Assembly: GCA_963787375.1 (NCBI GenBank)
Contig: CAWBCR010000011.1
Coordinates: 42,847-106,846, forward strand
DNA length: 64,000 nt
Source of the DNA: an uncultured Chloroflexia bacterium
GTDB lineage: Bacteria > Chloroflexota > Anaerolineae > Aggregatilineales > UBA3940
Reading direction: 5' to 3'
This document shows positions 20,479-33,612 of this stretch, one piece after another. The position numbers and the translations under genes are program-made. The notes under the pieces were generated by a model. It was not told the DNA's origin and made no database searches. It was given only the letters and a program-made list of their open reading frames with translations. Every line of letters begins with the position of its first letter. Position 1 is the stretch's first letter.

Positions 20479-22184
20479 TGCTTAGTCGCATGGGCCGCCG
20501 CAGGCTGCCCGGCGGCGTGGGCCAACAGCGGCAGGCGAACCGGCGCGTCTGGCGCAGGCGGCACGCGGCTCATCGCGTACTCGGCCAGCGCGGTGATCGT
20601 CAGGCTGGGGTTGATGCCGGGATTGGCCGGCACAATCGAGCCGTCGACCACATACAGGCCGGGATAGTTGTGCACCTCGCAATTCAGGTCGACGACGCCC
20701 TCGTCCGCCGTGCGGCCAAACGTCACACCACCCAGGATGTGCGCCGTCGTCGGGATGTTGAGCAGGCTCTCGTTGAAGGCCCCCTGCGGTACGCCATTGG
20801 CCCGGGCGGCAAAGGCGCGGGTCACCCGGTGGCCAATGGGGATCTCAGCCTGGATGGGCTTCTTGTCGTCGCGCGTCGAGACCAGCCCGCGCCGTAACAA
20901 GGTCAGCAGGCTGCGGCCCGGGCGCAAGTGCATCAGCGTGTCCTCAGTCTGCATTACCAGCAGAATGGTGGTGCGCTCCGCCCAGCGCGCGAAGAACTTG
21001 GCGTGCAGGAAATCGGCGGGATGGCGCAGCGCGGCTCCCAGCACCTTGAGCACACGGACCAGCGCGCCGCTGCTACCGGCGTCGATCATCGGCGCGGCCA
21101 GCGTGCGCATGAACGACGACCCGGCAGGGTAGCGCACCGGCTCGATGGCCGTCACATCGTCGGCCTGAAACACCGACGTGATGGCGATTCCCTGTGAATA
21201 GTCGATGTCACGGCTGCGCGACGTCGCGCCGATCAGCGCCTCGTTATTGGTGCGCACCTCGTCGCCCAGGCGCGGGGAAATATTGGGCAGCGAACGGGTC
21301 TCGTCGCGGCAGTGGAACAGCAGGCGCAGCGTGCCCAGCACTCCTGCCGACACTACCACGCTGCGGGTGCGGAGCGTGCGCATGGGGTTGGACAACAGCG
21401 CCGTCGCGCTGCGGTAGACGACTTCGTAACGCGCGCCATCGGGCTGGCCTTCGGGCAGGGGGCGGATATCCTGCACATCGGCCTCGGCACGAATTTCCGC
21501 ACCCCATTTTTCAGCGAAGTACAGGTAGTTCTTGACGAGCGTGTTCTTGGCGTTATAGCGGCAGCCGACCATACAGCCACCGCACTGCGTGCAGCCCGCG
21601 CGGTCGGGGCCTGCGCCGCCAAAGAAGGGGTCGGGGATCGTCTCACCCTCGTGGCCCGGCTCGCCGAAGAAGACCGACACGTCGGCGGCACGAAACGTGC
21701 TGCCCATGCCCATCTCGCCCGCGACCTCGCGCAGCGTGCCGTCGGCGGGCCACAGGCGCGGGTTGGTCACCACGCCCAGCATGCGGCGGGCGGTCTCGTA
21801 GTGAGGCCGCAGGACGGCCCTCCAGTCGGCCAGCGCGCTCCAGCCCGGCGCGTCGAACAGCGCGTCCTCAGGCTCCATGAGAACGTTGGCGTACACCAGG
21901 CTGCCGCCGCCGACCCCGCTGCCGTGCAGCACCAGCACCCCGTTGAGCAGCGTAAGCTGCTGGATGCCAAAGCAGCGCAGCACGGGCAGCCACAGGTATT
22001 TGAAGATGTTCCAGTTGGTTTTGGCGAAGTCGTCGTCGTGCAGGCGCTTGCCGCGCTCCAGCACGGTGACGCGGTAGCCCTTTTCGGCGAGGCGCATCGC
22101 CGTGACGCTGCCGCCAAACCCGGAGCCGATCACCACGTAATCACACGCGGCGTTGGCCTGCTGCTCACGCTGGTCTGCTGTCAT
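20475..22184 (-). CDS. GMC oxidoreductase, cholesterol oxidase (ChoD)-like
   Basis: VIGSGFGGSV, GVGGGSLVYAN, CxxCGGCMVGC..NAKNTL, TAHILGG, NPSLTITALAE. Confidence 0.88.
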   Translation of the reverse strand: MTADQREQQANAACDYVVIGSGFGGSVTAMRLAEKGYRVTVLERGKRLHDDDFAKTNWNIFKYLWLPVLRCFGIQQLTLLNGVLVLHGSGVGGGSLVYANVLMEPEDALFDAPGWSALADWRAVLRPHYETARRMLGVVTNPRLWPADGTLREVAGEMGMGSTFRAADVSVFFGEPGHEGETIPDPFFGGAGPDRAGCTQCGGCMVGCRYNAKNTLVKNYLYFAEKWGAEIRAEADVQDIRPLPEGQPDGARYEVVYRSATALLSNPMRTLRTRSVVVSAGVLGTLRLLFHCRDETRSLPNISPRLGDEVRTNNEALIGATSRSRDIDYSQGIAITSVFQADDVTAIEPVRYPAGSSFMRTLAAPMIDAGSSGALVRVLKVLGAALRHPADFLHAKFFARWAERTTILLVMQTEDTLMHLRPGRSLLTLLRRGLVSTRDDKKPIQAEIPIGHRVTRAFAARANGVPQGAFNESLLNIPTTAHILGGVTFGRTADEGVVDLNCEVHNYPGLYVVDGSIVPANPGINPSLTITALAEYAMSRVPPAPDAPVRLPLLAHAAGQPAAAHATKH

Positions 22185-22360
22185 ATCGGCACCCGCCTCC
22201 TGGCGACGCCCGCCGGTCTCGACGCCGGCAGTTGGTTCTACGCCTAGTCTAGCCGCGCACGGTGGGCTTGTCCAGCGGGGGGCGCGGATCGCATTTCGTA
22301 ACGCAGTTCTGGGACCATTTCAGGACATTTGGTGTGTGACAAAAAGCGCCTGAAAGACCA

Positions 22361-22388
22361 TTGACGTATCGAGGCAACGTGCTATAAT
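22361..22388 (+). promoter_or_regulatory. sigma70 promoter of the cysteine-synthesis operon
   Basis: TTGACG-16 bp-TATAAT. Confidence 0.75.
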
Positions 22389-22422
22389 CATTTTGACGAA
22401 AGTGATATAGTTTATCTGTTGG

Positions 22423-22497
22423 ATGATATTTGTGATGATACCTTACACCTGCACATGTCTTGAGCGGGGGCGCTGTTACCCTCGCACGAGGTGCTGA
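22423..22497 (+). CDS. Cys-rich leader peptide MIFVMIPYTCTCLERGRCYPRTRC (alternative starts 22432/22435)
   Basis: Four Cys codons in 24, between the promoter and cysM, overlapping the antiterminator arm. Confidence 0.75.
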   Translation: MIFVMIPYTCTCLERGRCYPRTRC

Positions 22498-22596
22498 CCG
22501 AACCACACCCGTCGCTAGTTGACCTCCGAGGGCAACACCGTCTCCGCCATTGCAGAACCCTGTTCTGCGGCCCGGCGAAGTGAGTGTGCCCTTTTT
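22464..22596 (+). promoter_or_regulatory. Transcription attenuator (antiterminator versus terminator)
   Basis: 22464-22484 pairs with 22527-22547 (19 of 21 positions, counting G-U). Alternatively GGGCAACAC (22530-38) pairs with GTGTGCCC (22584-91), followed by TTTTT. Confidence 0.7.
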
Positions 22597-22730
22597 GCTG
22601 CCCCTTTGCTGTGCCGCACGTGAGCCTTAAGCACGCCAATCTGCAAAACAGGCCCGTGATAAAGCACCCGGCCAACCCACACGCCACAAGCGCGCTGCCG
22701 GACATGCTCACGGGATAGCAAGGGAACCTG

Positions 22731-23714
22731 ATGACCAACCTGACCAACTCTCTCACCCGCGCGCACCCGGCCCTTGCCAACTCCGCGCCGGGCATCACCT
22801 ACCGACCGGGCAGCGCCGTCGACACGCTGGTCGGCAACACGCCGCTGCTGGCGTTCCGCCGCGTGACAGCAGGCCTGTCGCCGCGTGTCAGGCTGCTGGC
22901 TAAAGCCGAATGGGCCAACCCTGGCGGCTCGGTGAAAGATCGCCCCGCGCTGAACATCATCCGGCAGGCCGAGCGGCGCGGCGACCTGCGGCCCGGCATG
23001 ACGCTGCTCGACAGCACGTCGGGCAACATGGGCATCGCCTACGCGATGTTGTGCCGGGCGCTGGGCTACGCCGTGAAGCTGGTCGTGCCGGCCAACGCCA
23101 GCCCGGAGCGGCTGGCAACGCTGCGTGCGTATGGCGTCGACCTGACGCTGAGCGACCCCGCCGAGGGCACTGACGGCGCGATCCGGCTGGTGCACGATCT
23201 TTACGCAGCCGAGCCGGGTCGCTATTTCTTCGCCGATCAGTACAATAACCCGGACAACTGGCAGGCACACTATTTCAGCACCGGCGTCGAGATCTGGGAA
23301 CAGACCGGCGGGCAGGTGACGCATTTCGTGGCCGGGATCGGCACCAGCGGGACGCTGATGGGGGTCGGGCGGCGTCTGAAGGCCTATGATCCGTCGGTTC
23401 GACTGCTGGCCGTACAGCCTGACGCGGCGTTCAACGGCCTGGAAGGGCTGAAATACATGCCAACGGCCATCGTGCCCGGCATCTACGACGCCTCGCTGCC
23501 CGACGAGATCGTGCCGGTGCAAACCGAGGACGCCTACGCCATGTGCCGCCGGCTGGCCCGCGAAGAAGGCGTGCTGGTAGGCGTCTCGGCGGGGGCGGCG
23601 ATGGTCGCCGCGCTGGCGCTGGCCAAATCGCTCGACGAGGGCGTGGTCGTCACGCTGCTGCCGGATGGCGCGTCGAAGTACCTGAGCGAACCATTCTGGA
23701 CCGAGGGAGACTGA
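22731..23714 (+). CDS. cysM: PLP-dependent cysteine synthase (CysM-type)
   Basis: VGNTPL, NPGGSVKDR, TSGNMG, GIGTSGT, EGLK; operon context with mec, cysO and moeZ. Confidence 0.88.
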   Translation: MTNLTNSLTRAHPALANSAPGITYRPGSAVDTLVGNTPLLAFRRVTAGLSPRVRLLAKAEWANPGGSVKDRPALNIIRQAERRGDLRPGMTLLDSTSGNMGIAYAMLCRALGYAVKLVVPANASPERLATLRAYGVDLTLSDPAEGTDGAIRLVHDLYAAEPGRYFFADQYNNPDNWQAHYFSTGVEIWEQTGGQVTHFVAGIGTSGTLMGVGRRLKAYDPSVRLLAVQPDAAFNGLEGLKYMPTAIVPGIYDASLPDEIVPVQTEDAYAMCRRLAREEGVLVGVSAGAAMVAALALAKSLDEGVVVTLLPDGASKYLSEPFWTEGD

Positions 23715-23720
23715 ACGCCG

Positions 23721-24167
23721 ATGAGCATTGTCCTGATCGCACCTGAGCACCTGCAAGCCATCGAGGCGCACGGCATGGCGACCTATCCCAATGAAGGGGC
23801 AGGCTTCATGCTGGGGCGTGTCGACGGCGACACGTGGCTCATCGCGGCGCTGCTGCCCATCGACAACCGGCGCGAGCTCGAAGCACAGCACAACCGCTTC
23901 GAGCTAAGCCCAAGGGACTTCATGCAGGCCGAGGCCGAGGCGGACCGGCGCGGGCTGGACCTGATCGGCGTGTTTCACTCGCATCCCGATCACCCAGCAG
24001 AGCCGAGCGCGTTTGACCGCGACCACGCACTGCCCAACTTCAGCTATCTGATCACGTCGGTGCAGAAAGGGCAGGCGCAGGTCACCCGCGCCTGGCGGCT
24101 CAATCCGGACCGTTCTGCATTCGACGAAGACACACTGGAAATGACCGAGCACACAGGAGAAGCGTAA
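23721..24167 (+). CDS. mec: JAB/M67 metallopeptidase (Mec-like CysO-Cys peptidase)
   Basis: YPNE, FHSHPDHPAEPSAFD (JAMM motif). Confidence 0.88.
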   Translation: MSIVLIAPEHLQAIEAHGMATYPNEGAGFMLGRVDGDTWLIAALLPIDNRRELEAQHNRFELSPRDFMQAEAEADRRGLDLIGVFHSHPDHPAEPSAFDRDHALPNFSYLITSVQKGQAQVTRAWRLNPDRSAFDEDTLEMTEHTGEA

Positions 24168-24170
24168 GCA

Positions 24171-24905
24171 ATGGCAAGTATCCGGATACCTACCCCGCTG
24201 CGGGCCTACACCGGCGGCAGCGACACGATAGACGTCAGGGGCGACACGGTCGGGCAGGCGCTCGACGACCTGGTACGGCAGCACCCCGACCTCAGGCAGC
24301 ACCTGTTCAAGGACAGCACATTGCGCAGCTTCGTCAACATCTACGTGGGCGAGGACGACATCCGCTACCTAGACGGCGTCGATACGGCCATCACGCCGGA
24401 AACGCGGCTGTTGCTGGTACCATCGGTGGCGGGCGGCTCGCAGGAGGGGCTGCGCCAGGTGGACCATTCGGCGCTGCGCACCAACCAGGCATTCATCATC
24501 GGCTTTCTGCTGGCGGCCTTCGTGGTGAACAGCGCGGCGCTGGTCGCGTTCGTCGCCGCCGTGATGCTGGTCGGGACACTTTGGCCCGCGCTGGGGCTGT
24601 TCAAGCGCATCTACCGCCACGTGCTGAGGCCGTTGGGGATCGTGCGGCCCGACGTGATCCGCGACAATCCGGAGCCGCACCGCTTCGCACAGGGGCTGGG
24701 CGGGACGTTCCTGGTGGCGGGGCTGGCGGCGCTGCTGGCCGGCGTGCCGGTAGCAGGCTGGGCACTGGTGTGGGTCGTGATCGGGCTGGCGGCGCTCAAC
24801 CTGTTCGCCGGGTTCTGCGCGGGATGCTTCGTCTACTACCAGCTTAACCGGCTGGGCGTACCCGGCTTTGGCGTGAGCCGTATTGAGCGAGGTGAGCGTC
24901 TGTGA
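24171..24905 (+). CDS. MoaD/CysO-like sulfur carrier fused to a DUF4395 membrane domain
   Basis: IRIPTPLRAYTGG..FVNIYVG.DDIRYL..VPSVAGG continues in frame into VDHSALRTNQ..PHRFAQG..FCAGC. Confidence 0.85.
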   Translation: MASIRIPTPLRAYTGGSDTIDVRGDTVGQALDDLVRQHPDLRQHLFKDSTLRSFVNIYVGEDDIRYLDGVDTAITPETRLLLVPSVAGGSQEGLRQVDHSALRTNQAFIIGFLLAAFVVNSAALVAFVAAVMLVGTLWPALGLFKRIYRHVLRPLGIVRPDVIRDNPEPHRFAQGLGGTFLVAGLAALLAGVPVAGWALVWVVIGLAALNLFAGFCAGCFVYYQLNRLGVPGFGVSRIERGERL

Positions 24906-25354
24906 TCGAACGCGCGCTGATCGCCGCGCTGCTGATTGGGCTGGGCTTCGGGGCGGTGGTGCTGGGCTCGCGCTGGCAGGCCCGCCGTACGGGCCGCACC
25001 CGGCGCGGCGATGCGATTCTCGACGCGCTGCGTCCTGGCGTTCCAGCGGTGGTCTATTTCTGGTCCGAGACGTGCGCGCCATGCAAGACGGTCCAGAAGC
25101 CAGCGCTGGAACAGCTCCAGGCCGAGATGGGCCCCGATGGCGTGCAGGTGTACGCCATCAACGCGGTCGAACGGCCCGACCTAGCCGACGGCTGGGGCGT
25201 GTTGAGCCTGCCGACGACGTTCATCGTCGACGCAGGCCGGACGCCGCGCCGGGTGAATCACGGCGTGGCGCGCGCCGAACAGCTCAAGCGGCAGATCGCC
25301 GCCGTAGCGAATTGCGGCGACGTGAGCGTGGGTGGCGGGGAGCCATCGGCATGA
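24902..25354 (+). CDS. Membrane-anchored thioredoxin-like protein
   Basis: N-terminal TM; YFWSETCAPC; LSLPTTFI. Confidence 0.85.
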   Translation: MIERALIAALLIGLGFGAVVLGSRWQARRTGRTRRGDAILDALRPGVPAVVYFWSETCAPCKTVQKPALEQLQAEMGPDGVQVYAINAVERPDLADGWGVLSLPTTFIVDAGRTPRRVNHGVARAEQLKRQIAAVANCGDVSVGGGEPSA

Positions 25355-25513
25355 CAGCCACAGAAATAGATTTGCCAGCAGCTACGACCGGCAATCAATT
25401 GCCGGCCTATAGCGCGGGCTCGCTGCGCTCACCTGCGGATAAGTCGGTTAGAAACCGACTCAAATGCGCGCACAATTCCCGTGCTTAGCGTGATACATAG
25501 AGGATAAATCAGC

Positions 25514-26710
25514 ATGACAGTCTCTCAACACATCGCCCCGGAGGCAATCAACCTCTCACATGACGAAATCAAGCGCTACAGCCGGCACCTGATCATGCCC
25601 GAAGTGGGCATGGCCGGGCAGCGCAAGCTAAAGGCGGCCAGCGTGCTGCTGATCGGCGCGGGCGGGCTGGGCTCGCCGCTGGCGATGTACCTGGCCGCGG
25701 CAGGCGTGGGGCGCATCGGGCTGGTCGACTACGACACGGTCGATGCGTCAAACCTCCAGCGGCAGGTGATCCACGGCACGAAGGACATCGGGCGGTCCAA
25801 GCTGGAAAGCGCCAAGGCACGCATCACGGACATCAACCCCTACGTGCAGGTCGACACCTACGCCGCACCGCTGACCTCCGACAACGCGCTGGAGGTGCTG
25901 GCACCGTACGACGTGATCGTCGACGGCACCGACAATTTCCCGACGCGCTACCTGGTCAACGACGCGTGCGTGATGCTGGGCAAGCCAAACGTGTATGGCA
26001 GCATCTTCCGCTTCGAGGGGCAGGCCAGCGTGTTCGACGCGACGCAGGGACCATGCTACCGCTGCCTGTTCCCCGCGCCGCCGCCGCCCGGCCTGGTGCC
26101 AAGCTGCGCCGAAGGCGGCGTGCTGGGCGTGCTGCCCGGCACAATCGGGGCCATCCAGGCGACAGAGACGATCAAGCTGATCCTGGGCACGGGCGAGACG
26201 CTGATGGGACGGCTACTGCTATACGACGCGCTGAAGATGAGCTTCGAGTTTGTGAAACTGCGCAAGAACCCGGACTGCCCGGTGTGCGGCGAGCACCCGA
26301 CGCTGACCGAGCTGATCGACTACGAGCAGTTCTGCGGGATGCCGGGCCACGACCACAGCGCCTTCCACAGCGACAACGAGGCGATAGTGCCGACCATCAG
26401 CGTTAAGGAAGTCAAGCGCAAGCTCAACTCCGGCGAAGACTTCGTGCTGCTCGACGTGCGCGAGCCGCACGAGTGGCAGATCTCAAACATCGACACACCG
26501 CTGACGGTGCACATCCCCAAGGGGCAGATCCTTGAGCAGCTCGGCAAGCTGGACACCGCCCATGAGATCGTGGTGTACTGCAAGACGGGCGGGCGCTCGG
26601 CAGACGTGGTCGCCACGCTGAAAGAGCACGGCTACACGCATCTCAAGAACATGGCGGGCGGGATCAACGCGTGGGCCACGCAGGTGGACCCGGAGCTGCC
26701 GACGTACTGA
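25514..26710 (+). CDS. moeZ: MoeB/MoeZ E1-like adenylyltransferase with C-terminal rhodanese
   Basis: RYSRH, GAGGLGSP, SNLQRQ, DGTDNFPTRYL, CYRC, LDVREPHE, YCKTGGRS. Confidence 0.92.
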   Translation: MTVSQHIAPEAINLSHDEIKRYSRHLIMPEVGMAGQRKLKAASVLLIGAGGLGSPLAMYLAAAGVGRIGLVDYDTVDASNLQRQVIHGTKDIGRSKLESAKARITDINPYVQVDTYAAPLTSDNALEVLAPYDVIVDGTDNFPTRYLVNDACVMLGKPNVYGSIFRFEGQASVFDATQGPCYRCLFPAPPPPGLVPSCAEGGVLGVLPGTIGAIQATETIKLILGTGETLMGRLLLYDALKMSFEFVKLRKNPDCPVCGEHPTLTELIDYEQFCGMPGHDHSAFHSDNEAIVPTISVKEVKRKLNSGEDFVLLDVREPHEWQISNIDTPLTVHIPKGQILEQLGKLDTAHEIVVYCKTGGRSADVVATLKEHGYTHLKNMAGGINAWATQVDPELPTY

Positions 26711-26712
26711 CA

Positions 26713-26773
26713 GCAGGGGCAGGGACAATACAAGAGGGCAGGTGCAAAGGGCAGGGACAAGCCCTGCCCCTAC
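26713..26773 (-). repeat. GTAG-type REP-like palindrome with a degenerate inverted partner
   Basis: Minus strand GTAGGGGCAGGGCTTGTCCCTGCCC (26749-26773); plus strand GCAGGGGCAGGG at 26713. Confidence 0.6.
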
Positions 26774-26796
26774 AGAACCCATCGGATGATGGTACG

Positions 26797-27609
26797 CTAC
26801 AGATCGAGGGTCCACACAGGGGCGCTAGGCCCTAGAACCTCGAAGCCCAGGCGATGGTAGAGCCGCTGCGAGCGAAGGTTGTCCGCCTGGGTATTGACGG
26901 TAATCAGGCTGATGCTGCGCTGCTGGAAAAAGCGCAGCATCCCGCCGACAAGCAGCGCACCCAGCCCGCGCCCCTGTAGTTCAGGCAGCACGGCCAGCCG
27001 CGCCAGGTGGCCGGTCCCATCGTGGCGGGTGCTGAGCTGGTAGCCAATGGGCTGCCCATCCTGTTCAAGCAGGGTGAAGGTGGCGGACTGCGACGCTGCC
27101 ACTTCGAGCGTTGCCTTGCTGTACTGCCACAGCGGCTCAAACGACGCCGCATCGATGCGCTCCACGACGTCGAGGTCGGCGGCAGATACCTCGCGGATGG
27201 CATACGGTGAAGCCGGATCGGGTGGGACCTCGCCGCGCACGCGGCGCAGCGTTATGACCGCCGTCGCCTCGACAAACCCCCACCGTGCCGCCAGCGCGCC
27301 AACCCACGGCTCAATGAACAACAAAGCCACCTGCCGGACGCTGCGCGCGCGCAGATCATCGCGCAGCGCCTGCCACAGCTCGTCCAGTGCGCGATCAGAG
27401 CCGAGGATCGACGGCGGCACCAGGAAGCGCAGCCAAGCGATACACGCGCCGGGCGCGTTCAGCGGCTGGTGAACCGTCGCACCGGCCAGCGCGTGGATCG
27501 CACCGTTCTTGTGCAGCACGCGGCAGCACAGGTTGGGGTCTGACAGCCAGTCTTCGAGGCTGCGCCAGTCGAGGTGCTTGTGCTGCCGGACGGCGCGCCG
27601 GAAGAGCAT
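26797..27609 (-). CDS. GNAT N-acetyltransferase (RimI-like C-domain); true start possibly ~27685
   Basis: HLARLAVLPELQGRGLG; VNTQADN..SQRLY.RLGF. Confidence 0.85.
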   Translation of the reverse strand: MLFRRAVRQHKHLDWRSLEDWLSDPNLCCRVLHKNGAIHALAGATVHQPLNAPGACIAWLRFLVPPSILGSDRALDELWQALRDDLRARSVRQVALLFIEPWVGALAARWGFVEATAVITLRRVRGEVPPDPASPYAIREVSAADLDVVERIDAASFEPLWQYSKATLEVAASQSATFTLLEQDGQPIGYQLSTRHDGTGHLARLAVLPELQGRGLGALLVGGMLRFFQQRSISLITVNTQADNLRSQRLYHRLGFEVLGPSAPVWTLDL

Positions 27610-30958: not shown

Positions 30959-31721
30959 ATGAGCGACGCCCCCGTTTACATCGGGATTGATACCACTGCC
31001 GGCAACAGGCCGATCACTCTGGCCGTGCTGGACAGCGCCCTGCGCGTGAGGCAGATCGAAGCACTGCCGTTCGACGCCGTTGTCGAGGCGGTGCTGGCTT
31101 ATCCTGCCGCTGTGTGCGGGATTGACGCGCCCATCGGGCGCAACAGCGGGCTGCTGGCCGACCCGGATTACCGGACGCGGCGTAACCTGAACCCGCACCG
31201 AGTCCGCTACAGTAACTACCGCGTGTGCGAGTTCGAGCTGCGGCGGCGCGGCATTTACGTGTACAACACGCCCAGCGAGGAGTTGCGCGTCGCCTCGTGG
31301 ATGCAAACGTCGTGGCACTGTATGACCGGCTGCGCGGCGGCGGGCTACGTCGACGCGCCACAGCGCGGCCCGCGCAGCCTGTTCGAGACGTATCCGTATG
31401 CGATCTTCACGGTGCTGGCTGGCACCCGCCCGTACCCGAAGAACAGCATCGAGGGGCGGCTTCAGCGGCAGCTGATCCTGTATGAGGAAGGCGTCGACCT
31501 GTTCGACCCGATGCGCGTGCTCGAAGAATGGACCCGCCACCACCTGCGGGCGGGGCGGCTCAACATGGAAGGCATCTACGAGCATGACGGGCTGGAACGC
31601 GCTAGCTGCCGCCTTTACGGCCTACGTGCTGGACCGGGAGCCGCAGCGCACCACCGCCGTCGGCGACCCGGCAGAAGGGCAGATCGTGCTGCCTTCCTCT
31701 GGTCTGCGGGATGCGTACTGA
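30959..31721 (+). CDS. DUF429-like RNase H-fold protein; apparent frameshift near 31600
   Basis: YIGID, GIDAP, FETYPY; shifted tail ALAAAFTAY..GDPAEGQIVLP. Confidence 0.75.
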
Positions 31722-31843
31722 TGGTCATTGGTGCGTGCTGCTAACAATGAGGGGCGGTCAAGTGAGCCCGGCCCGCGCCTCTGAAAGCCTGTTGCTGATG
31801 GCCTACAGCGATAGCCGGACCACAAGCTATCAGCCATGGGCAA

Positions 31844-32371
31844 TTAGCTGCGCCCGTAGCCCAGGAACCCGCGCGATACGCTGCGCGTCTCCTCAACGGT
31901 CACAAACGCCTTGGGATCGGCCTCGGTGGCAATCTGTACGATCTGAGGCACGTTCTTGCGCCGCGCAACGACGAAGACCAGCCCCACCGTCCCGGTCGAC
32001 CCCTCACCAGAGGTGCGCGTCGCGCCAAAGCCCGCCTCGCGGATGGCCTTGGCGACCGACAGCGACATGCCCATCGAGACGATGTTGACCGTCGCGAAGC
32101 CCTGGCCCATGCGTTGCTCAATCATCATTCCGACCCACGTCCCGGCGGCGAACCCGCCGCAGTACGCGCCCAGATACCACAGGTTGGTCAGGTCGCTGGC
32201 CACCACGCCGAACGTCAGCGCGAAGGTCAGCGCCTCAACGAAGGCGATACCCGACACGAGCAGCCGGTTGGCGCGCCCCATGATCAGCAGTCGCATGGTC
32301 GACAGCGTGATGCTAAACACCCGCACCAGGAAGATCAGCAGCGCAGCGAGGATAATGTTATCGGGTATCAT
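31844..32371 (-). CDS. DUF2179/DUF5698 (YebE-like) membrane protein
   Basis: AYCGGFAAGTWVG; GFGAT..GEG; DPKAFVTVEE. Confidence 0.85.
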   Translation of the reverse strand: MIPDNIILAALLIFLVRVFSITLSTMRLLIMGRANRLLVSGIAFVEALTFALTFGVVASDLTNLWYLGAYCGGFAAGTWVGMMIEQRMGQGFATVNIVSMGMSLSVAKAIREAGFGATRTSGEGSTGTVGLVFVVARRKNVPQIVQIATEADPKAFVTVEETRSVSRGFLGYGRS

Positions 32372-32450
32372 GGTGTTCTCTTTCCAGTTTCAGAAACAAC
32401 ACCGGGCATGCGAACCATGCCCGGTATTTGTGCCTGGGTCAACCTGAGGC

Positions 32451-33612
32451 TCAGCCGTGGCGGCGCATGAAACGCTCGATGCGCTCCAGCGCCTGCTCGA
32501 TCTTCTCGTAGGCGGTCGCATACGAGGCGCGCATGAAGCCCGCGCCGCTCGCGCCGAAGGCCGTGCCGGGGACCATCGCGACACGCTCCTCGTGCAGCAG
32601 CTTCTCAGCGAAGACGTTCTCGTCCATGCCCGACGCGACAATCGACGGGAAGGCGTAGAACGCGCCGTGCGGCTCGAAGGTCGGTAGGCCAAGCTGGTTG
32701 AAGCCACCCACGATCAGCTTACGCCGCCGGTCGTATTCGGCGCGCATCTCCTCGACATAGGGCCGGCCTTCCTCCAGCGCCACAATCGCCGCGACCTGGG
32801 CCGTCGTCGGGGCCGACATGATGGTGTACTGGTGGATCTTGCGCATCGCAGCCAGGATATCGGCGGGAGCGGCAGCATAGCCGATGCGCCAGCCGGTCAT
32901 GGCATAGTCTTTCGAGAAGCCGCCCAGCGTGATCGTCCGGCTGTGCATGTTGGGCAGGCCCGCAAAACAGACGTGCTCGACGCCGTACACCAACTGGTCG
33001 TAGATCTCGTCGGAGATCACCAGCAGGTCGCGCTCCTCGGCCAGCTTCGCGATCTCTTCCAGCCGCTCGCGCGACATCACCGCGCCGGTAGGGTTGTTGG
33101 GGTAGCTGAGCAGGATCGCCTTGGTCCGCTCGGTGAGCGCCTCGCGGATCGCCACGCCGGTCACCTGGAAGTTATGCTCGACGTGCGTGGCGATGGTCAC
33201 CGCCTTGCCGCCTGCCAGCACCACTTCCGGCACGTAAGATACAAAACGACGGCTCTGGCACGATCACCTCGTCGCCGGGGTCGAGGATAGCGTTCAGCGC
33301 TAGGTACAGTGCCTCCGACACGCCAACCGTGATCAGCAACTCGCTTTCCGGGTCGTAGCTGACGCCATACAGCGCCTTGAGGTGCGCGGACAGCGCCTGG
33401 CGAAGCTCCAGCAGGCCGGAGTTCGAGGTGTAGTGCGTCTCGCCGCCCTCAAGCGAATGGACACCGGCCTTGAGGAACGGCGCAGGCGTCGTGAAATCCG
33501 GCTCGCCGATACCCAGCGAGATCACGTCATCCATCGTCGCAGCGATGTCAAAGAATTTGCGGATGCCTGACGGCGGGATGCCTTCCACCCGCCGGGCGAC
33601 AAAGTCACGCAT
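32451..33612 (-). CDS. Class I/II PLP aminotransferase; apparent frameshift near 33240
   Basis: SLGIGEPDF, YPNNPTG, SDEIY, GFSKDYAMTGWRIGY. Confidence 0.92.

Follow-up and report, generated by a model that had tools for sequence, protein, structure and literature searches.

The CysO/CysM/Mec+/MoeZR system is a cysteine pathway of M. tuberculosis (PMC3227635), in which Mec+ hydrolyses the CysO-cysteine adduct; the same 2011 account calls the sulfur donor of MoeZ-CysO pathways unknown. A ThiS/MoaD carrier encoded together with an E1-rhodanese, a JAB protease and a cysteine synthase defines operon class 4c of Iyer et al. 2006, for which Chloroflexus is listed (PMC1779556). Carriers made as precursors have also been described. 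Linear MoaD-MoaE fusions include M. tuberculosis MoaX (PMC4326299) and D. radiodurans DR2607/DR0402 (PMC8832034), and an engineered SAMP1-MoaE fusion has been combined with HvJAMM1 (PMC4443979). JAMM proteases cut such linear fusions after the terminal Gly (PMC4443979, PMC8832034), and MoaX requires cleavage for activity (PMC4326299). QbsE/QbsD and the proposed CxnE/CxnF represent short-tailed carrier precursors trimmed by a cluster-encoded JAMM protease; the trimming of QbsE is described through PMC5925218. DUF4395 is named in PMC10937449 and scarcely elsewhere in the searched literature. No description of a ThiS/CysO-DUF4395 fusion was found in the main texts searched, a partial coverage of the literature, and the data file of PMC1779556 might list one.

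In this study, we analysed a window (a 64,000-nucleotide stretch of one contig from an uncultured Chloroflexia bacterium) in which an operon of this kind contains a carrier fused to a membrane domain. Five genes lie on the + strand in the order cysM-like synthase, JAB, fusion, N-anchored thioredoxin and E1-rhodanese. The CysM-type PLP cysteine synthase (PALP; 22731-23714) scored 362 bits against TIGR01138, under its cut-off of 394. The JAB/JAMM metalloprotease (Prok-JAB, Mec+-like; 23721-24167) has an intact motif of E25, H86-S-H88, S96 and D99. Downstream of the fusion lie a thioredoxin with an N-terminal membrane anchor and a C58-A-P-C61 motif (24902-25354), the start of which overlaps the stop of the fusion (GTGA), and a MoeZ-type E1 (ThiF) plus rhodanese protein recognised by profile matches (25514-26710). 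An earlier note, written from the letters of the window, had placed a JAB protease, a membrane thioredoxin (CAPC), CysM and an E1-rhodanese around the fusion, and all four were found by domain matches. The gap of 160 nt ahead of moeZ (25354-25514) holds inverted repeats, one of which is terminator-like on the - strand (25372-25394).

The fusion ORF (24171-24905, +) encodes 244 amino acids with no internal stop on translation. Residues 1-89 (24171..24437, +) were identified by Pfam and PDB matches as a CysO-type beta-grasp sulfur carrier, which ends in VPSVAGG, with G88-G89 at codons 24432-24437. A 7-residue, unconserved linker, SQEGLRQ (24438..24458, +), follows the terminal Ala-Gly-Gly, and the predicted scissile bond is G89|S90. 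The remaining part (24459..24905, +) is a DUF4395 membrane domain by Pfam and topology prediction, with four predicted transmembrane helices and a C216-A-G-C219 motif (C216-x-G-C219 in the family) predicted at the cytoplasmic membrane face. Pfam placed ThiS at 4-89 (E 4e-7) and DUF4395 at 97-227 (E 1e-30); the latter match is full-length, keeps CxGC and reached 106.9 bits against a cut-off of 24.5. Translation and Pfam thereby confirmed what had been read from the letters, namely that the carrier runs without a stop through VPSVAGG into a DUF4395 domain with CAGC. In the primary product 155 residues follow Gly-Gly, and the carrier has no free C-terminal Gly-Gly; the released carrier (residues 2-89) would have a mass of 9622 Da. 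The AlphaFold model of the fusion (mean pLDDT 93) shows a beta-grasp domain connected by a linker of low confidence to four long helices. A structure search with the whole model returned beta-grasp proteins at Z 14-17, and the helices matched generic four-helix bundles at Z < 8. The closest solved relatives of the carrier are the CysO proteins 4n6e_B (Z 16.3, rmsd 2.0, 89 residues aligned) and 3dwg_C. A protein atlas search with residues 92-244 returned DUF4395 clusters only.

Compared with the CysO pathway and class 4c, the window's operon has all four gene types, and its carrier is nearest to CysO structures. It differs in that the carrier has no free C-terminus, that DUF4395 and an anchored thioredoxin are inserted, and that the synthase scores nearer E. 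coli CysM (250 bits) than the M. tuberculosis enzyme 3dwg_A (187 bits). Among the carrier and gene-content features of the CysO pathway, the fusion departs from strict membership in the free C-terminal GG, which it lacks before the predicted cleavage. Like the MoaX-type fusions, it has an internal Gly-Gly behind a beta-grasp carrier and an intact E-x(n)-H-S-H-x7-S-x2-D JAMM protein in the genome, and the window's genome encodes a MoaD-MoaE fusion too; unlike them, its partner is the integral membrane DUF4395 rather than the carrier's catalytic subunit, and the fusion is sporadic. Like QbsE and CxnE, it has residues beyond GG and a JAMM gene in the cluster, and 74 of 120 stand-alone carrier orthologues bear tails of 1-23 residues, with 46 ending at GG; unlike QbsE and CxnE, its extension is a whole 155-residue membrane protein. 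Plain DUF4395 proteins (PF14340) lack the N-terminal carrier. On this comparison the system appears to work like the CysO/CysM/Mec+/MoeZ pathway combined with MoaX-type JAMM processing. Freeing a carrier from a fusion by cutting is a known trick; the DUF4395 membrane partner is new, and the system is no new class.

Related loci came nearly all from Anaerolineae/Chloroflexota records. The gene content of 80 loci included E1 at 77, JAB at 75 and CysM at 49, where some loci are truncated and others have MetY/MetX-like genes in place of CysM. Operon context suggests that the window's CysM uses the carrier, and the likely role of the carrier is to bring sulfur to cysteine synthesis. CysE, PAPS reductase and sulfite reductase gave no match in the window's genome, which at 83% completeness does not imply their absence. 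In another genome of the set (G114; L096 / L138) the operon has MetY/MetX-like genes in place of cysM, and its carrier is joined to a divergent DUF4395; this arrangement suggests that some members of the order use the carrier to make homocysteine.

The fusion ORF was confirmed to be real rather than an assembly error because the same two domains (PF02597 and PF14340) are joined in all of the best 120 of 3197 homologues, at 53-68% identity, and because 37 of 80 GTDB loci are fused in frame. The architecture sought in other genomes thus proved to be present. Among contigs of four of 14 sequencing runs, two contigs of low depth span the GG codons and run to 24457-24460; extending fewer than 31 letters past GG, such contigs were not counted as bridging the junction. 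All 121 fusion proteins compared keep Ala87-Gly88-Gly89 unchanged, and the residues beyond vary in sequence and length; these proteins are top-scoring homologues, for which some conservation bias is expected. Their linkers are mostly 3-14 residues long (median 7, shortest 3), and in eight of the 121 a 3-residue linker leads to a conserved Val-Asp that is predicted to lie at the membrane surface.

Among relatives, fused genes are scattered. The 80 GTDB loci, a set biased towards in-frame cases, comprised 37 fused in frame, 34 with GG plus a tail of 1-11 residues and nine with a stop at GG. An even class sample of 251 genomes had a strong DUF4395 match in 53, with six clearly fused and one more ambiguous. 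Within the window's own family, carrier and DUF4395 are adjacent in 14 genomes, fused in five and split in nine. Orthologues with a stop after GG had been named in the earlier note as grounds for rejecting its reading; many orthologous loci do have such a stop, but the window's gene does not. On a quick tree of 96 loci, built without duplicates and L089, the fused state underwent 14 changes, of which at least four were forced by well-supported branches; the tree does not separate repeated fusion from repeated fission. A single fused clade was rejected on a quick 95-row tree that also left out the long branch L096. Met is still present in five fused linkers, and losing a stop several times seems a simpler history than gaining a start several times.

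The carrier is also joined to other proteins. Among the best 120 longer homologues, 82 were carrier-MoeZ/ThiF, 34 carrier-DUF4395, one carrier-TusA (P0297) and two JAB-carrier (P0305, P0307), and one had a long tail only. Carrier-GG-MoeZ fusions occur at L180:1498-2952, L105 and L122, and the fusion proteins of the longer set lie within P0242-P0338; one long homologue, P0296, has Gly-Ala in place of Gly-Gly. The fusion is sporadic, flips on the tree, and has a carrier that elsewhere ends at GG, bears a tail or is fused to MoeZ, so it is probably a tolerated by-product rather than a purposeful arrangement.

The earlier note regarded the product as a polyprotein that the adjacent JAB must cleave. 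Comparative evidence (invariant GG, the JAMM motif, a bias at the P1'-like position and the lack of a free carrier among the genes found) supports this well, and we consider cleavage after Gly88-Gly89 by the adjacent JAB likely. The JAB motif is intact at 43 of 45 fused loci; of the two others, one contig begins inside JAB, and the second is a short cut-out whose longer copy matches JAB. A JAB was present in 79 of 80 genomes checked (from 131 with a match), a set with no JAB-less group to show dependence of the tails on JAB. Pro after GG blocks ubiquitin proteases. Across 228 rows, residue +1 after GG was Pro in none and Asp/Glu in three, with about 107 changes at this position on the tree, whereas positions +2/+3/+4 had Pro in 15/6/40 and Asp/Glu in 76/46/23. 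Residues after GG in the proteins of the window's genome are Pro in 4.8% and Asp/Glu in 11.3%, which gives binomial p values of 0.005 and 0.001; these statistics are rough, as the rows are related sequences. The avoidance of Pro, Asp and Glu right after GG fits a protease site. In addition, the bond in the CysO-cysteine adduct is a GG|X peptide bond on the carrier type seen here, and a carrier placed ahead of its own activating enzyme, as in the MoeZ fusions, makes most sense if it is cut.

No free-ended stand-alone carrier was found in the window's genome (G000, 83% complete), and G114 (98% complete) and G073 (97%) likewise gave no stand-alone carrier; G012 and G058 are fused, yet have several further ThiS-family genes. 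The sole other ThiS-family match in the window's genome is a MoaD-GG-MoaE fusion beside a MoaC-like ORF (L131; G000:C17:80205-80942, -), which is a second likely JAB substrate. As a counterpoint, the 3-residue linkers at the predicted membrane surface may hinder a protease. The genome has a further stand-alone JAB gene, which encodes an HSH motif, at G000:C17:25755-26198 (+); its product could also process fusions, and the adjacent JAB need not be the sole protease.

The best explanation of these observations is as follows. The JAB protein would cut the fusion after Gly88-Gly89 and release a 9.6 kDa carrier. By analogy with the M. tuberculosis CysO/CysM/Mec+/MoeZR pathway, MoeZ would adenylate and thiocarboxylate the released carrier, CysM would form carrier-GG-Cys, and JAB would then free the cysteine. 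JAB already hydrolyses a GG|X peptide bond in each catalytic cycle on this scheme, so residues after GG are likely to be removed as well, and removal of anything after GG would relax selection on the carrier's stop codon. Lineages would then repeatedly lose the stop and gain short random tails or a fusion to the next gene, which is DUF4395 here and MoeZ or TusA elsewhere. Once the fusion is cut, the cell would contain the same two proteins as its split-gene relatives, and DUF4395 would act with the membrane thioredoxin as a module apart from the carrier.

Several other readings of the fusion were weighed against this explanation. The frame could be an assembly error, or the parts could be made separately through an internal start or recoding. 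Relatives more often have split forms, a carrier of 94% identity (P0122, a split gene or a contig end) has a different 9-residue tail, and AGGAGG stands 11 nt ahead of the GTG of Val97; however, the architecture recurs in 120 independent proteins, and an internal start would leave the carrier without a free C-terminus, which makes this reading highly unlikely. The internal GTG start at Val97 was rejected, as GTG occurs there in 18 of 76 loci, no more than at other Val codons. Almost as unlikely is a fusion that stays uncleaved, in which the beta-grasp domain would dock MoeZ or CysM at the membrane and the GG would be kept for binding. The shortest linkers would suit it, another role has been proposed for ThiF-fused Ubl domains that co-occur with stand-alone ThiS, and a YukD-like beta-grasp domain joined to a 12-helix membrane domain is on record (PMC1779556). 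E1 chemistry, however, requires a free C-terminal carboxylate (PMC3227635, PMC4326299), a further CysO-type carrier was not found in G000, G073 or G114, and the residue bias after GG fits proteolysis.

A fusion that is cleaved and nevertheless selected deserves more consideration, and we still regard it as improbable. It would fix a 1:1 ratio of carrier to DUF4395, deliver the carrier to the membrane beside a DUF4395-thioredoxin sulfur source, or have the beta-grasp domain assist folding of the membrane protein, and JAB cleavage would be the control point. Consistent with this, fusion recurs in several lineages, some clades on the tree are uniformly or almost uniformly fused, residual uncleaved MoaX has been observed in vivo (PMC4326299), and the charge distribution (positive-inside rule) predicts the carrier, the DUF4395 CxGC and the thioredoxin domain all on the cytoplasmic side. 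Against it, nine of 14 close relatives in the same family are split, the carrier joins whatever gene comes next, the linker has no conserved sequence or length, and other operons have the carrier at a distance of 2-6 kb or behind the thioredoxin. The tolerated, JAB-processed fusion remains our preferred explanation.

DUF4395 is consistently accompanied by the membrane thioredoxin rather than by the carrier. Of 130 loci (duplicates included), 128 have a thioredoxin ORF clustered next to DUF4395, and the Cys pairs of both proteins are invariant (105 of 105 each). Among 44 further Chloroflexota loci, a thioredoxin was next to DUF4395 in 39, one of them as a single DUF4395-thioredoxin ORF; the 37 of these loci that belong to other classes had no carrier within 1.5-3 kb among the genes found. 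The DUF4395 family is also present in Thermus thermophilus and Corynebacterium glutamicum. The pair often sits among sulfur genes, including cysteine synthases, tandem rhodaneses and MetY/MetX-like and CysE-like genes; other DUF4395-thioredoxin loci have unrelated neighbours. The earlier suggestion of a membrane sulfur/redox relay, to which the fusion would tie DUF4395 and the thioredoxin, is weaker than the cleavage reading. The link of the pair to sulfur metabolism comes from operon context and not from the fusion: the majority of orthologous operons are split, fused genes are spread over the tree, the carrier equally fuses to MoeZ or TusA, and DUF4395-thioredoxin pairs without an adjacent carrier occur across Chloroflexota. 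Tentatively, and with somewhat more doubt than belief, DUF4395 and the thioredoxin may act as a thiol/persulfide redox pair whose CxxC motifs face the cytoplasm, providing or recycling sulfur for the MoeZ rhodanese domain; electron input to the thioredoxin and sulfur uptake are possible alternatives. It is unlikely that the pair is the widespread missing sulfur donor module of MoeZ-CysO, with the fused carrier born tethered and its release regulated by JAB. If true, the tethered carrier and its JAB release would amount to a bacterial ubiquitin-precursor design on a membrane protein. No solved membrane thiol oxidoreductase (VKOR/DsbB/CcdA-like) was among the 50 structure matches to the whole fusion model, and complex prediction for DUF4395 with the thioredoxin scored 0.08, indecisive either way. 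A plasmid search with DUF4395 gave no match. At L224:2603-3424 (+), DUF4395 is fused to a thioredoxin-like domain and both DUF4395 halves contain CxxC, which suggests an internal two-fold repeat in this DUF4395.

The region upstream of the operon was also characterised. A candidate sigma-70-like promoter, TTGACG-16-TATAAT with an extended TG, lies at 22361..22388 (+) and matches the consensus at 11 of 12 positions, the consensus match being its basis. It is followed by an unannotated leader ORF (22423..22497, +) with a Cys-x-Cys-x-x-Arg-Gly motif, a candidate cysteine-sensing attenuator. Its Cys codons (TGC..TGT) occupy 22450-22452 and 22456-22458, and an overlapping hairpin spans 22464-22485. 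Of 48 Anaerolineae cysM-JAB upstream regions, 43 have the leader Cys motif, compared with 0 of 48 antisense sequences and 7 of 960 shuffles. The leader ORF and hairpin are consistent with a predicted cysteine-responsive operon, and the conserved Cys-codon leader points to a role of the operon in cysteine supply. An Rfam scan of window 22000-27000 gave no match. Ms5788 of M. smegmatis may be a DUF4395 protein. The gene for this hydrophobic protein of 159 residues heads a cysteine-attenuated cysA2 operon (10.1101/834739).

These results would extend JAMM processing of bacterial ubiquitin-like precursors from the soluble MoaD-MoaE to an integral membrane partner. One operon provides a natural series of GG-stop, GG-tail, GG-DUF4395 and GG-MoeZ forms, which suggests that selection on the carrier's stop codon is lifted by a recycling protease whose specificity can be read at the residue after GG. 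The fusion also provides a testable handle on DUF4395 and on the MoeZ-CysO sulfur donor. Elsewhere in the window, an aminotransferase-like gene (31711-33612, -) is apparently split over two frames (33172-33612 and 32451-33233), and the frame of 30959-31744 seems to shift near its end; these breaks are possible assembly indels in the contig. In the same genome, G000:C17:263557-269226 (+) encodes an E1-like protein with an N-terminal segment that reads as GntR-like, two JAB-domain proteins and small ORFs, a cluster that looks like a separate bacterial ubiquitin-like system.
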